This document shows positions 30,550 to 54,509 of a DNA stretch of 61,753 bases, piece by piece. The DNA comes from Pseudomonas phage Max. The DNA is taken from sequence record PP661416.1. The stretch is one strand, 5' to 3'. Positions within the stretch are counted from its first letter, which is position 1; the number at the start of each line of letters is the position of its first letter. The notes under the pieces are model-generated. The model made no database searches, was not told the DNA's origin, and saw nothing but the letters and a program-made list of their open reading frames with translations. The position numbers and the translations under genes were made by a program.

Positions 30550-30569
30550 GGGAGGGCCGGAGCCCTCCC
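30550..30569 (-). terminator. GC hairpin GGGAGGGC-N4-GCCCTCCC after the major tail gene
   Basis: Perfect 8-bp stem. Same motif at 48648..48667. Confidence 0.35.
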
Positions 30570-46384: not shown

Positions 46385-46795
46385 TCAGTCGATGGCGGCG
46401 ATGATTTCCTCAGCCTCCGGGTGGTCGAAGGCGAAGTCACGCAGCTTGTAGAACAGGTCCACGTAGTCCTGGCGCTGCGGGTACTTCCAGCAGAGGGCGT
46501 TGAACACGAACAGGCAGGTGATCAGGCCCGCGGCGTCTCCGCTGACCTCGCCCGAGTAGCCGTTGGTGTCCACGGTCAGTCGCAGCTTTCGGTTCTCAAT
46601 CGCCGGGGCCAGGTACATCGCGCCGTTGGACAGCTTGTACATGTACCAGTACGCGCCGTTGTACTCCTCGCACATCTTCTGGAGGTGGCTGTACATGGCC
46701 ATTTCGACCCGGAGGAAGTCCGCCCCGAAGTGGGCCGGGAGGACCTGGAGGCGCTGGTCATCGTTGTCGATGCGGGTGGCTGTGATCTTGCTCAT
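46385..46795 (-). CDS. antirestriction protein, ArdB/KlcA family
   Basis: LPAHFGADFL...CEEYNGAYWYMYKLSNGAMYLAP...GEVSGDAAGLITCLF...DHPEAEEIIAAID aligns along its length with E. coli KlcA. First gene after the promoter at 46829..46857. Confidence 0.75.
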   Translation of the reverse strand: MSKITATRIDNDDQRLQVLPAHFGADFLRVEMAMYSHLQKMCEEYNGAYWYMYKLSNGAMYLAPAIENRKLRLTVDTNGYSGEVSGDAAGLITCLFVFNALCWKYPQRQDYVDLFYKLRDFAFDHPEAEEIIAAID

Positions 46796-46828
46796 GTTGA
46801 GTTCTCCATTTCTGATTGAGGTGAAGAA

Positions 46829-46857
46829 AGTATAGTGTGGGCTCCCGAAGAAGTAAA
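46829..46857 (-). promoter_or_regulatory. sigma70-like promoter (-35 TTTACT, 17 bp, -10 TATACT) + conserved RBS cassette
   Basis: gtgaagaaagtatagtg...cgaagaagtaaag. Confidence 0.5.
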
Positions 46858-46871
46858 GCCCCGCCGGGTGT

Positions 46872-47342
46872 TCAAGGAACCCACGGCGGTCGGAGCCCTC
46901 GCGCGGCCCGGTGGCCGGACTTCTCCCGCTCCGCTTTGTCGTGTCGCAGGTCGCGGTCCGCCTCCGCCATGTCCGATCCGGTCCCGAAGCTGAAACCCGG
47001 GACTGAGCCGCGCAGGAGAAGGAGCCGTTGGGTGAGCTGTTCAGCGTCTCCGTCCATGACGGCGAACTCATCGCCCGACACGCGGAACACCCAGTCAGCT
47101 CCGAAGGATCGCACGAGGGCGTCCGCCAGGACCTGGAGGGCTTGATCACCGGCGCGGTGGCCCCAGTTGTCGTTGATCCACTTCAGCGAGTCCAGATCAA
47201 CGAGGGCGACGGCCCGGGCCTCCCCGAGGGCTCCGGTGAAGGCCCTGCGGTTGAGGACCCCGGTGAGGGGGTCCTGGTACAGGGCGGCGTACAACTCTGC
47301 CTCCGACATGCTGCGGAGGGCTTCGAGGAGGTTTGGGCGCAT
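46872..47342 (-). CDS. stand-alone GGDEF-domain protein (motif SGDEF), putative nucleotide cyclase
   Basis: LTGVLNRRAF...VDLDSLKWINDNWGHRAGDQALQ...FRVSGDEFAV. Start MRPNLLEAL with GGAGGA. Confidence 0.65.
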   Translation of the reverse strand: MRPNLLEALRSMSEAELYAALYQDPLTGVLNRRAFTGALGEARAVALVDLDSLKWINDNWGHRAGDQALQVLADALVRSFGADWVFRVSGDEFAVMDGDAEQLTQRLLLLRGSVPGFSFGTGSDMAEADRDLRHDKAEREKSGHRAARGLRPPWVP

Positions 47343-47346
47343 CCGG

Positions 47347-48231
47347 TCAGTCCTCCAGCACCGCGATCCGCTGGACAACGGTTTGGGCCTGGCCGCGGTA
47401 CTCCGCGTGCTCCTTCACGGGGGCCTTGATCTTCAGCTCCTCGCCTTCCTCCGCGTAGAAGGCCCCGGACTTCGACACGAGGCAGGCCCCGGTCGCGCGG
47501 TCGATCATCGTGATGATGTGGACCGTCTCGATGCCATAGCCGTTCCAGGCGTCCCGGGCGAAGGTGTAGCGGCGCACCACGGTCACGTCGAAGGTCATGC
47601 GCTTCTTCGGCTCGCCCACGTACAGGTCGGGCTTCGGCTTCGGCAGGGCGAGGTGCGGGACCCGGCGGGCGACCTCCTGGGCGGTCAGGCGCATCAGGCC
47701 TCCTTCCTCGAAGTCCGGCAGGGTGTCGATCAACCAGCTGATGTAGCCCCGCGGGGCCTCGTGGAACTCCTTGCCCGCGTAGGGTCCGAAGGCGAACTTG
47801 CCGCCCAGGATGGTCTGGCGCTTCTCCTCCTCCTCCGCGGCCCGTTCCGCGGCCCAGCGGTCCTCGCGCTCCTTCCGCTCACGCTCCCGGCGCTCCAGCT
47901 CCGCGGCGTTGGCGCGGTGAATCGCGTTCATTTCCTCCCGGAGGGAGTCGCGGGAGGTCGTGAGCTTCAGGCCCATGCGCTCAGAGGCTTCCTGGGCCTT
48001 CTCGAAGGCTTCATCAGGGTCCTGGCTCAGGTTCTTCACATGGTAGCTGCGGACCTCGAAGGAGCCCTGATACACGCCATTCACCACGGCGTTGCCCATG
48101 GGGCCAGGACCCGGGACGGCCTTCAGCTCCGTTTCGCGGAGGGTGAAGAAGCAGCCCAGCTCCCCGACTCCGATGAACAGGGTGGGGACGAAGGTGGAGG
48201 GGTTCAGGGTGCGGTTGTGGATGTTGTACAT
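47347..48231 (-). CDS. hypothetical protein with a DUF3820-like C-terminal region
   Basis: Start MYNIHNRT with AAGGAG. FGPYAGKEFHEAPRGYISWLID. Confidence 0.45.
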   Translation of the reverse strand: MYNIHNRTLNPSTFVPTLFIGVGELGCFFTLRETELKAVPGPGPMGNAVVNGVYQGSFEVRSYHVKNLSQDPDEAFEKAQEASERMGLKLTTSRDSLREEMNAIHRANAAELERRERERKEREDRWAAERAAEEEEKRQTILGGKFAFGPYAGKEFHEAPRGYISWLIDTLPDFEEGGLMRLTAQEVARRVPHLALPKPKPDLYVGEPKKRMTFDVTVVRRYTFARDAWNGYGIETVHIITMIDRATGACLVSKSGAFYAEEGEELKIKAPVKEHAEYRGQAQTVVQRIAVLED

Positions 48232-48255: not shown

Positions 48256-48275
48256 GGGAGGGCCTGAGCCCTCCC
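48256..48275 (-). terminator. GC hairpin GGGAGGGC-CTGA-GCCCTCCC
   Basis: Intergenic, perfect 8-bp stem. Confidence 0.3.
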
Positions 48276-48281
48276 GGTCGA

Positions 48282-48545
48282 TCACAGCTGGCCGAACTTC
48301 CAGAGGGTCTGGCGACCTCCGCGAGGTCCGAAGCCGATCAGCTCCAGGGAGCCGTCCGCGCGGAGGACCAGCATGTTGATCCGGCGGATCGCGCGGTCAC
48401 CGGCGAAGGTCCGGGCGGCGCTGGCCTTCGCTTCGCGCAAGGTCGGCAATTTCATGCGGTTCTCGACTTCGCCCAGGGAGGCGAGCAGGCCCATGTCGAT
48501 CAGTTCGCGGGCAGCGTGGGTCTGGGGCGGGAGGATCAGGCTCAT
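48282..48545 (-). CDS. hypothetical protein (first gene after the promoter at 48585..48614)
   Basis: GAAATGGAGAACTGAA-ATG. Confidence 0.45.
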   Translation of the reverse strand: MSLILPPQTHAARELIDMGLLASLGEVENRMKLPTLREAKASAARTFAGDRAIRRINMLVLRADGSLELIGFGPRGGRQTLWKFGQL

Positions 48546-48584
48546 TTCAGTTCTCCATTTCTACAAGTTGTTCAACGTGAAGAA

Positions 48585-48614
48585 AGTATAGTGCCATTCA
48601 CCCGAAGAAGTAAA
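48585..48614 (-). promoter_or_regulatory. sigma70-like promoter (-35 TTTACT, 17 bp, -10 TATACT)
   Basis: gtgaagaaagtatagtg...cgaagaagtaaag. Confidence 0.5.
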
Positions 48615-48647: not shown

Positions 48648-48667
48648 GGGAGGGCCGGAGCCCTCCC
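48648..48667 (-). terminator. GC hairpin GGGAGGGC-CGGA-GCCCTCCC between a gene end and the next promoter
   Basis: Identical 20-mer at 30550..30569. Confidence 0.35.
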
Positions 48668-49284: not shown

Positions 49285-49330
49285 GATGTTCTCCATTTCT
49301 GTGGTTGCCGTTCTTGTTGAACGTGAAGAA

Positions 49331-49359
49331 AGTATAGTGGGGGCTCCCGAAGAAGTAAA
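49331..49359 (-). promoter_or_regulatory. sigma70-like promoter (-35 TTTACT, 17 bp, -10 TATACT)
   Basis: gtgaagaaagtatagtg...cgaagaagtaaag. Confidence 0.5.
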
Positions 49360-49384: not shown

Positions 49385-49576
49385 TCACGGCAACTTGTGG
49401 CGGTCCCGACAGGGCGCACAGACTCCTCCCACCAGCCTCCCGCTCCATTCGCCACACAGGTCGCAGTCGCCCGGCTCCCCGGGCGGTATCTTCGCCGCGG
49501 CCTCCGCGATCCGGGCCACTTCGCGGTCCGTGTCGTGGAGGATGCGGTCATTGCTCAAGTCGATTTCGTCAGCCAA
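49385..49576 (-). CDS. TraR/DksA-type C4 zinc-finger protein
   Basis: CDLCGEWSGRLVGGVCAPC. Confidence 0.5.
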   Translation of the reverse strand: MADEIDLSNDRILHDTDREVARIAEAAAKIPPGEPGDCDLCGEWSGRLVGGVCAPCRDRHKLP

Positions 49577-54446: not shown

Positions 54447-54480
54447 GATCGGGCTCCTTCGGTTCGGGGTCAGTGAAGAA

Positions 54481-54509
54481 AGTATAGTCACGGACCCCGA
54501 AGAAGTAAA
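54481..54509 (-). promoter_or_regulatory. sigma70-like promoter (-35 TTTACT, 17 bp, -10 TATACT)
   Basis: gtgaagaaagtatagtc...cgaagaagtaaag. Confidence 0.5.

Follow-up and report, generated by a model that had tools for sequence, protein, structure and literature searches.

A stand-alone, shortened GGDEF domain of Pseudomonas phage Max is a candidate unregulated c-di-GMP synthase for host takeover

Pseudomonas phage Max, a Yuavirus-like phage of Pseudomonas aeruginosa, carries a gene whose product consists of a GGDEF domain and little else, and the locus raises the question of what such a protein could do for the phage. We analyzed the 61,753-nt stretch of sequence record PP661416.1 (the window), in which positions 46872..48231 are occupied by two adjoining minus-strand ORFs. 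These ORFs and the genes on either side are as follows.

46385..46795, minus strand: ArdA-type antirestriction gene, the downstream neighbour, with a separate promoter (Pfam, PHROG).
46872..47342, minus strand: GGDEF (SGDEF) coding sequence, ortholog of YuA gp44, 156 aa plus stop (ORF call, translation, Pfam, AF2/Foldseek).
47347..48231, minus strand: 294-aa ORF of the YuA gp43 family, upstream in the GGDEF transcription unit (phrog_3628, E = 1.2e-80).
48282..48545, minus strand: 87-aa ORF, the first after the promoter (phrog_15793, E = 1.1e-54).

The GGDEF ORF starts with an ATG at 47342, and a longer version beginning with a TTG at 47378 is not used, because homologs share the start MRPNLL. 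The first-pass annotation had described a 156-aa protein made essentially of a GGDEF domain, and the motifs that it quoted (LTGVLNRRAF, WGHRAGDQ and RVSGDEF) are found exactly in the translation, while the Pfam and TIGR profiles detect no domain besides GGDEF and nothing recognisable as a dimerisation or sensor domain. Alignment to Pfam GGDEF (PF00990), which that annotation had proposed as a check, gives E = 2.6e-16 and a score of 60.3 bits, well above the curated cutoff of 23.8, and TIGR00254 scores 60.1 bits (cutoff 37.4). The Pfam match spans profile positions 2–87 of 161 only, because the domain is shortened. With 336 homologs found and pairwise dN/dS values of 0.25–0.38 among five orthologs, the gene is genuine and under purifying selection. 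Its GC3 of 0.82 is slightly lower than that of its neighbours (0.88–0.92), which is not decisive on whether the gene came from a host. Recent capture from the host finds no support, as SadC, the best solved relative, is only 32% identical.

The GGDEF assignment is itself a rediscovery, because YuA gp44, so annotated since 2008, and many of its relatives already carry the name diguanylate cyclase. YuA gp44 (YP_001595867.1) is equal in length at 156 aa, shares 91% amino acid identity with the Max protein, from which it does not differ in any essential way, and is likewise flanked by the gp43 homolog on one side and by a repeat promoter followed by the ArdA gene on the other. Compared with the YuA annotation, for which we relied on the GenBank notes, Max has an extra promoter copy and the upstream 87-aa ORF, which is not annotated in YuA between gp42 and gp43. 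Orthologs of gp44 occur in Yuavirus and Vojvodinavirus phages, and in PAC9, MP1412, AN14, CN1 and further phages they carry the annotation 'diguanylate-cyclase GGDEF domain protein'; two alleles circulate, SGDEF (Max, YuA) and AGDEF (PSA20, CN1). YuA gp44 is also mentioned in a 2023 review, and in the literature searched we found no enzymatic or in vivo results on the protein or any ortholog. What is new here is the shortened module with its clade-specific tail, the conservation of individual residues, the missing I-site and the delimitation of the clade.

The AF2 model of the protein (pLDDT 95.8, pTM 0.89) shows a predicted fold that is a shortened version of the GGDEF domain, which is palm-like with the order βααββαβ. 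All 50 matches listed by Foldseek against the PDB are GGDEF-domain proteins, mostly cyclases, and include DgcB, TM1788, WspR, PleD and SadC. The TM-scores of these listed matches on the query are moderate (0.52–0.68), owing to deletions and the C-terminal tail of the phage protein. A profile search of PDB sequences likewise returns 49 GGDEF chains, with P. aeruginosa SadC at the top (E = 8.5e-18). In the model, a short N-terminal helix pair (residues 3–11 and 14–22) is predicted to pack onto the domain, α1 is truncated, the α3–β4 hairpin and the β4–α4 loop are shortened, and a clade-specific tail (K..RE..G.RA.RG..PPW) replaces β5. The protein has the GGDEF fold and catalytic residues in common with canonical cyclases such as PleD, WspR, SadC, DgcZ and YfiN/TpbB, along with the motifs DxLTGxxNRR, DxDxxKxxND, GHxxGD, xGDEF and the AD...K helix. 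It differs from them in being about 20–30 residues shorter, in having no sensor, receiver or coiled-coil domain and no RxxD I-site, in carrying Ser for the first Gly of the GGDEF motif, and in replacing the canonical C-terminal GRN/β5 with the conserved RE..G.RA.RG..PPW coil. Isolated GGDEF domains are frequently monomeric and weakly active; tandem-double relatives of the phage protein exist (P0221–P0223), in agreement with a need for two GGDEF domains.

At least 80% of the protein is present in 56 phage records, and all of the homolog contexts examined are phage-like; the neighbours of distant GGDEF homologs are unrelated. An apparent independent occurrence in Escherichia phage ERS-1 was set aside, as it is a frameshift-ridden Yuavirus-like region in an UNVERIFIED record. 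Using a clade cutoff of E ≤ 1e-30, we obtain 259 cluster representatives (71,963 at E ≤ 1e-10). Stand-alone phage proteins and domains embedded in giant polyvalent proteins make up this small clade of closest relatives. Its members match from end to end, N-terminal helix and K..RE..G.RA.RG..P tail included, and stand well apart from ordinary GGDEF domains; 82 stand-alone domains and 52 from giant proteins conserve the clade signature. Apart from the stand-alone family itself, no sequences come closer than the polyvalent versions of phages and conjugative elements, which have profile E-values of 1e-33 to 1e-61 across the entire module, tail included. They share with the phage protein the clade signature, the preference for SGDEF and the lack of an I-site. 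Unlike the stand-alone Max protein, they sit inside proteins of 1,000–5,500 aa that carry LPD1/5/22/39 domains, an Eco57I-type methylase and an SNF2 helicase; they also retain a longer β-hairpin ahead of the S.G strand, and usually have His at the position of Max R87 and Gly at that of W154. GGDEF modules in polyvalent proteins were noted by Iyer et al. in 2017, who proposed that they interfere with host nucleotide signalling (PMC5512222).

Absence of the catalytic residues, which the first-pass annotation had named as grounds for dropping a cyclase assignment, is not what we see. D49, D51, K54, N57, D58, G65, D66, G90, D91, E92, K136 and R139 are all fully or almost fully conserved in the family, with D49 and N57 found in 120/120 relatives and D66 in 116/120. 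D49, N57 and D66 align to the SadC block DLDHFKRIND...GD, and we take their counterparts in PleD to be D327, N335 and D344. The cross-dimer Arg of PleD is presumably the first R of NRR, which corresponds to R32 here and is present in 120/120 relatives. K136 (117/120) fits the L..AD..L...K register of the canonical α4 helix, on which we take the phosphate-binding residues of PleD to be K442 and R446; the counterpart of R446 is ambiguous, either R139 or R145, and the register of the HMMER alignment to SadC differs from that of the motif. In the scheme of Hallberg et al. (2019), the Asn of the GGDEF active site recognizes the sugar face and the GTP-specific Asp the Watson–Crick face, the Asp of the GGDEF motif holds Mg while its Glu acts as general base across the dimer, and the cross-dimer Arg stacks on guanine (PMC6456294). 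Read against this scheme, the phage protein keeps all residues with a known role in binding Mg2+, guanine or the 3'-OH.

The same residues bear on the product. The first-pass annotation had left open a hybrid cGAMP cyclase, and such Hypr enzymes are recognized by Ser or Thr at the Watson–Crick position together with a cross-dimer residue other than Arg (PMC6456294). The phage protein has the canonical residues at both positions, D66 (116/120) and the invariant R32, which speaks against a Hypr-type enzyme and indicates c-di-GMP rather than cGAMP. A defence-system cyclase or mCpol (Cas10 palm) was also considered and rejected, with no PADLOC match at E ≤ 1 and with GGDEF families providing all of the best matches. 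We therefore regard it as very unlikely that the protein is an active cyclase whose main product is something other than c-di-GMP, be it 3',3'-cGAMP, c-di-AMP, linear pppGpG or another signal, used to jam or mis-trigger cyclic-nucleotide immunity or rival elements. Such a product would suit the unique, conserved Arg-rich tail (K..RE..G.RA.RG..P) that takes the place of the canonical AK..GRN/β5, the occurrence of the same module within polyvalent counter-defence proteins, and the proposal of interference with host nucleotide signalling (PMC5512222). Against it stand the canonical GTP-specific Asp and Arg pair, the lack of a PADLOC match, and the CBASS- and Cas10-type families, which match no better than GGDEF.

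The first-pass annotation had also singled out the A-site and I-site for inspection. The A-site is SGDEF (residues 89–93), in which G90, D91 and E92 are invariant while the first position varies among the 120 relatives (S in 55, A in 31, G in 27). The RxxD I-site, expected five residues upstream of the A-site, is found in 0/120 relatives, the phage protein having F80-G-A-D83 (FGAD) in that register, and in 2/142 domains of the wider clade. GGDEF proteins that serve as c-di-GMP receptors bind the nucleotide via the RxxD I-site, and with no RxxD here we reject a receptor of that kind. An SGDEF motif is compatible with catalysis, as had been claimed, since ECA3270 (SGDEF) and VCA0965 (AGDEF) are both active cyclases in which the first motif Gly is replaced (PMC3974145). 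The comparison is one of motifs; both are multi-domain bacterial proteins, and the RxxD of VCA0965 is functional (PMC3974145). Replacement of the first motif residue of VCA0965 by Ser abolishes its activity (PMC3974145), so SGDEF is tolerated in some backgrounds only.

It is this last observation, along with the absence of a dimerisation domain, the shortened fold, the replaced motif Gly and the frequent use of degenerate GGDEF domains as receptors or scaffolds (PMC3974145), that would fit a protein that is catalytically dead or nearly so and acts by binding GTP, c-di-GMP or host GGDEF proteins. It might then form non-productive heterodimers with host cyclases that lower c-di-GMP, or serve as a receptor or decoy. 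We consider this unlikely. Binding alone would not need a full catalytic set, yet D49, N57, D66, D91, E92, K136 and R32 are invariant at 40%–99% identity in stand-alone and polyvalent forms alike; the I-site used by receptor GGDEF domains is missing; and ECA3270 is active with the same SGDEF motif (PMC3974145).

The signals around the gene are listed below.

46821..46857, minus strand: the repeat-promoter copy that comes next, 15 nt past the GGDEF stop (repeat search, sigma70 scan).
47351..47356, minus strand: GGAGGA, resembling a Shine–Dalgarno site, within the last codons of the upstream ORF and 8 nt ahead of the ATG of the GGDEF gene (sequence).
48256..48275, no strand assigned: perfect GC-rich hairpin, GGGAGGGC-N4-GCCCTCCC, between the 87-aa and 294-aa ORFs (repeat count).
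48577..48614, minus strand: predicted repeat promoter for the string of 87-aa, 294-aa and GGDEF genes (repeat search, sigma70 scan).

The promoter previously placed at 48585..48614 was recovered by the sigma70 scan as TTTACT-18-TATACT, and lies within a 37–38 nt repeat that has four minus-strand copies in the window against 0 expected; these four were returned by a variable-gap pattern, a fixed-spacing pattern returning none. In the YuA record, the homologous repeats bear the label 'putative sigma70 promoter requiring phage-encoded cofactor'. The copy at 46821..46857 is predicted to drive the ArdA-like gene, whose product matches Pfam Antirestrict (PF03230; E = 9.6e-28, 96.6 bits, cutoff 25) and phrog_10132 'anti-restriction protein'. 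The GGDEF gene had been called the terminal gene of its operon, and it is indeed the last gene ahead of the next repeat promoter; a scan found no intrinsic terminator between its stop and that promoter, so that "terminal" means just the last before the next promoter. The stop codon of the upstream 294-aa ORF (TGA, 47347..47349) is 4 nt ahead of the GGDEF ATG, which makes translational coupling of the two ORFs plausible. The GC-rich hairpin occurs three times in the window (30550, 48256 and 48648) against 0.23 expected, and no T-run follows the copy at 48256..48275, so a terminator role is not supported for it.

The upstream neighbours give little indication of a dedicated partner. The 294-aa protein had been described as DUF3820-like, and its own Pfam scan gives no match at E ≤ 1, DUF3820 (PF12843) included; a weak DUF3820-like motif is suggested by its homologs, since PF12843 is found in 2/100 and JGI gives the name DUF3820 to three. 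In its AF2 model (pLDDT 91.8), a long helix is accompanied by an OB-fold-like C-terminal domain that has weak Foldseek matches to RPA/SSB OB folds (E of 3e-3 to 1e-1), and a PDB sequence search returned nothing but coiled-coil noise from radial spoke proteins. We rejected the gene as a conserved partner of the GGDEF gene, because its homologs in Rhizobium phage RHph_Y52, Pseudomonas phage Epa19 and one metagenomic phage have no GGDEF neighbour. The homologs of the 87-aa ORF in PAC9 and PSA20 are annotated as hypothetical proteins.

On balance, and with modest confidence, we favor an unregulated c-di-GMP synthase for host takeover, one that may remove the phage's own pilus receptor. Reading from the conserved residues, two copies of the protein would meet, each carrying one GTP, to form c-di-GMP; with neither a sensor domain nor an I-site, output would be set by the amount of protein made alone, and the protein probably floods the host with c-di-GMP. 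The gene would be transcribed from the phage-specific, sigma70-like repeat promoter in a host-interaction region, beside the ArdA gene, such that infection would lift host c-di-GMP. YuA depends on type IV pili, and c-di-GMP induces plzR, whose product PlzR abolishes pili and with them YuA adsorption (PMC11461919). As PlzR stops YuA adsorption, the most likely payoff of high c-di-GMP would be that infected cells lose the phage's own receptor, and it is plausible that pili are blocked through this host route, with PlzR preventing type IV pilus assembly. Superinfecting pilus-dependent phages would then be excluded and progeny spared adsorption to doomed cells, with reduced motility and increased matrix as side effects. 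There is precedent for a phage raising c-di-GMP in P. aeruginosa, in that the YIP peptides of PB1-like phages act on YfiN (PMC8085984). YIPs are small peptides that activate a host cyclase, whereas Max would supply its own enzyme.

The same activity could instead be valued for lysogenic conversion, biofilm or GTP drain and not for receptor removal during the lytic phase, which we judge to be rather improbable. We know of no report of lysogeny in Yuavirus phages; current annotation makes the YuA 'integrase' a DNA primase, and the GGDEF gene shares its repeat promoter with replication-region and host-interaction genes and lacks a moron-like promoter of its own. YuA was also used as an infecting, pilus-dependent phage in the PlzR study (PMC11461919). 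In favor of conversion, the record of YuA gp44 carries the note "putative role in host cell conversion", and lysogens of Bordetella phage LK3, said to encode a GGDEF diguanylate cyclase, overproduce biofilm, a phenotype that the authors attributed to the GGDEF gene but without a genetic tie to it (PMC8471281). The close LK3 relatives CN1, CN2 and FP1 have GGDEF orthologs that are 65–70% identical.

Returning to the favored synthase, the presence of the module inside polyvalent proteins fits a general role in host takeover or inter-element conflict. More tentatively, we hypothesize that the gp44-type and polyvalent GGDEF domains are one 'invasion' clade of sensor-less, feedback-free cyclases, in which the Arg-rich tail adds a further property and which serve to disarm hosts or rivals. 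The tail might permit self-association without a partner domain, dock the enzyme on a host target or alter its product, and the output might shut down receptors via PlzR/PilZ or might jam cyclic-nucleotide immunity.

If active, the Max protein would be a tiny cyclase that lacks any recognisable site of regulation and by which the phage sets host c-di-GMP directly, and at 156 residues and free of feedback it could be a handy tool for raising c-di-GMP. Yuavirus phages are under isolation as candidate therapeutics, and an active gene that pushes P. aeruginosa toward less motility and piliation and more biofilm matrix would bear on the safety of phage therapy, as well as on the design of phage cocktails, because other pilus-dependent phages could be cross-excluded. 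The link to PlzR offers a simple and directly testable mechanism. Should the clade as a whole prove to be a set of invasion enzymes, this would be the first enzyme-based hijack of a second messenger by a lytic Pseudomonas phage.

The region 46872–48231 holds two minus-strand ORFs, as the first-pass annotation had it. ORF A is a real gene whose translation contains LTGVLNRRAF, WGHRAGDQ and RVSGDEF as quoted there, and it shares its MRPNLL start with its homologs; ORF B ends 4 nt ahead of it.

Features of the GGDEF locus and associated repeats
46385..46795, minus strand: ArdA antirestriction gene (Pfam E=9.6e-28)
46872..47342, minus strand: ORF A, 156 aa, ATG at 47342
47347..48231, minus strand: ORF B, 294 aa, phrog_3628
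47351..47356, minus strand: GGAGGA, within the final codons of ORF B
48282..48545, minus strand: 87-aa ORF, farther upstream of ORF A and ORF B, phrog_15793
48585..48614, minus strand: sigma70-like site TTTACT-18-TATACT, upstream of the 87-aa ORF, ORF B and ORF A
46821-46857, 48577-48614, 49323-49359 and 54473-54509, minus strand: promoter repeat copies (exact-core search)
49385-49576, minus strand: 63-aa ORF, CxxC...CxxC zinc ribbon, CDLCGEWSGRLVGGVCAPCRDRH
30550-30569, 48256-48275 and 48648-48667: perfect GC-rich hairpins GGGAGGGC-N4-GCCCTCCC

The description of ORF A as a stand-alone GGDEF protein is borne out by its Pfam match (E=2.6e-16), which spans profile positions 2–87 only, and by a TIGR00254 score that exceeds its cutoff. 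The family profile retrieved 49 GGDEF chains among solved structures, headed by P. aeruginosa SadC (E=8.5e-18). An AlphaFold model (alignment of 61 homologs; pLDDT 95.8, pTM 0.89) has the GGDEF fold, and among the Foldseek matches listed from the PDB, 50 of 50 are GGDEF-domain proteins, cyclases for the most part. Compared with SadC, ORF A is trimmed by ~11 residues past NRRAF (α1) and by ~10 residues ahead of the S.G strand. In the model, α4 begins three residues past β4 and an ordered 15-residue coil lies at the β5 position, so that the domain, as modelled, is shortened and compact.

Residues of ORF A were placed using the SadC alignment and PleD numbering. Their roles follow Hallberg et al. 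2019 (PMC6456294).

Conservation of ORF A residues among 120 relatives
D49, metal Asp: 120/120
N57, sugar-face Asn: 120/120
D66, Watson-Crick Asp, GTP specificity: 116/120
D91, Mg-binding Asp of the motif: 120/120
E92, cross-dimer general base: 120/120
R32, cross-dimer Arg: 120/120
K136, phosphate-binding Lys, L..AD..L...K register: 117/120

The catalytic set is thus intact and conserved. The Arg partner of K136 may be R139 or R145, HMMER having taken a different C-terminal register in its SadC alignment. The first motif residue is Ser in ORF A and varies across the family (S 55/120, A 31/120, G 27/120). Enzymes with SGDEF (ECA3270) and with AGDEF (VCA0965) are active, with a tolerance that depends on background (PMC3974145), in keeping with the earlier remark that SGDEF variants can be active. 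The I-site register reads FGAD, and RxxD occurs in 0/120 relatives. Together with a dN/dS of 0.25–0.38 for the gene (window, PAC9, YuA, PSA20, CN1), the fold, catalytic residues, motif variants and I-site absence argue for a working, GTP-specific cyclase without feedback inhibition, a prediction drawn from sequence and model. A cyclase with a product other than c-di-GMP is improbable, as the near-invariant D66 and the invariant R32 speak against it, and these GTP-specific residues also count against the hybrid cGAMP option first proposed. The main weakness of the active-cyclase reading is that nothing obvious for dimerisation is present; a non-catalytic binder or decoy, set beside the intact catalytic set, seems to us unlikely.

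Nearly all of the 336 homologs in a 90%-clustered database are 146–195 aa with GGDEF as sole Pfam domain, and ORF A itself has no sensor. Examined homolog contigs are phage-like, with siphovirus-size genomes (terminase, holin, tail or lysozyme genes) as well as jumbo-size contigs, and on these no conserved neighbour gene was found. When 1.84 billion representatives were searched exhaustively with the profile, 466,365 GGDEF matches came up, only 259 of which reached E<=1e-30. The best 150 of these 259 comprise 87 stand-alone proteins (260 aa or less), 10 intermediate ones and 53 proteins of >700 aa (maximum 5,484 aa). Three of the intermediates (metagenomic P0221, P0222 and P0223, 478–544 aa) are tandem doubles with two complete mini-GGDEF copies, the NRR motif being degenerate in both; judged from sequence, they may be covalent pseudo-dimers.

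In each of the four giant proteins scanned, Pfam finds "large polyvalent protein-associated" domains (LPD1, 5, 22, 39), and one adds an Eco57I-type methylase and an SNF2 helicase. These are polyvalent proteins of the type that Iyer et al. 2017 described for phages and conjugative elements, in a paper that already recorded GGDEF domains in such proteins (PMC5512222). Stand-alone and embedded modules have the same catalytic residues, SGDEF preference (71/142), I-site loss (RxxD in 2/142) and conserved C-terminal tail K..RE..G.RA.RG..P (132/148), which places ORF A in a mobile-element clade. In the literature searched, no explicit tie between the stand-alone phage proteins and polyvalent-protein modules was found; the tie suggested by these shared features is an incremental observation. 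A viral protein fragment without a UniProt name, BFVD A0A516M277_1 (1143 aa), has a domain with 36% identity and a TM-score of 0.82 to the mini-GGDEF model and is probably another polyvalent protein. With the ArdA-type gene directly downstream under its own promoter copy, the GGDEF module of ORF A looks like part of an "unbundled" collection of the modules typical of polyvalent proteins.

The region shares 93–97% identity with many Yuavirus phages of Pseudomonas aeruginosa, with Bordetella phages of the genus Vojvodinavirus as more distant relatives. ORF A is 91% identical to its YuA ortholog gp44, for which the GenBank note gives a putative role in host cell conversion, and many relatives are labelled "diguanylate-cyclase GGDEF domain protein". 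ORF A is therefore a rediscovery of low novelty, with a putative function already annotated; a literature search for a biochemical or genetic study of such a protein found none. Two alleles exist, SGDEF (window, PAC9, YuA) and AGDEF (PSA20, CN1); as N-terminal residues 8–35 and the block ADRDLRHDKAEREKSGHRAARG are identical in the two and the middle is ~40% different, the sequences suggest recombination within the gene, also between Pseudomonas and Bordetella phages. A frameshift-ridden version of the Yuavirus 87-aa ORF/gp43/gp44/ArdA region in Escherichia phage ERS-1 (PP337211.1 48204-54560), a 175-kb UNVERIFIED record, was rejected as an E. coli phage gene; a chimeric assembly or sequence of poor quality is the probable cause. 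Elsewhere, the YuA annotation (L015 14312-15367 and neighbours) lists a putative deoxyuridylate hydroxymethyltransferase (gp17) and threonine dehydratase-like and photolyase/radical-SAM-like proteins. Since thymidine is hypermodified in the related phage M6, the DNA of the window's phage is, by analogy, probably modified too.

ORF B had been called DUF3820-like. Pfam finds no match in ORF B itself; among its homologs, PF12843 occurs in 2/100 and the JGI name "DUF3820 family" on three, so the label is weakly supported. Its model (pLDDT 91.8) runs from an N-terminal beta domain through a long helix and a small helical unit (GK.F.EAPRGY..WL) to a C-terminal beta barrel (residues 211–286) that is predicted with confidence. 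The barrel's weak likeness to RPA/SSB OB folds is consistent with relatives being labelled "DNA binding protein", and this domain alone matches four further PHROG families with no function assigned. Because ORF B homologs in the other phages examined have no GGDEF gene behind them, the adjacency reflects gene order at this locus and does not mark a functional pair.

The proposed promoter at 48585..48614 was recovered within a 37–38 nt repeat, with four exact-core copies on the minus strand against 0 expected by chance. In the repeat, TTTACTTCTTCGGG-N-(C)ACTATACTTTCTTCAC, a sigma70-like promoter (TTTACT-17/18-TATACT) precedes a conserved TTTCTTCAC. Since spacer and downstream bases are conserved, a phage factor may bind there; the YuA record labels homologous repeats "putative sigma70 promoter requiring phage-encoded cofactor". 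A candidate cofactor, from sequence, is the 63-aa zinc-ribbon protein, with homologs labelled TraR/DksA family regulator (PAC9) and RNA polymerase-binding protein (CN1). One copy begins 15 nt past the ORF A stop, ahead of the ArdA gene, and no terminator-like site was found 3' of ORF A. The promoter copy and 87-aa ORF (48282-48614), between gp42 and gp43 homologs, lack a counterpart in the YuA annotation (L005 1630-1745), are likewise present in PAC9 and PSA20, and look like a small mosaic insertion relative to that annotation. Two of the three GC-rich hairpins (0.23 expected) lie in intergenic spacers of the promoter/87-aa/ORF B/ORF A string; as a T-run is missing after each, they may serve RNA stability or processing and not act as classical terminators.

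We propose that an ORF A homodimer would make c-di-GMP at a rate governed by expression alone, raising host c-di-GMP during infection. YuA infection depends on type IV pili, c-di-GMP acts on the plzR promoter, and PlzR abolishes both pili and YuA adsorption (PMC11461919), so induction of plzR would lead to pilus loss and may remove the phage's own receptor. YIP peptides of other Pseudomonas phages raise c-di-GMP by activating YfiN, in a study that considered superinfection exclusion as well (PMC8085984). That ORF A serves lysogenic conversion or biofilm instead of receptor removal has a small chance of being correct: in a 2021 paper, lysogens of Bordetella phage LK3 are hyper-biofilm and its GGDEF gene was noted, with no genetic link between the two (PMC8471281). 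The feature is real, and the original interpretation holds within the reach of computation.
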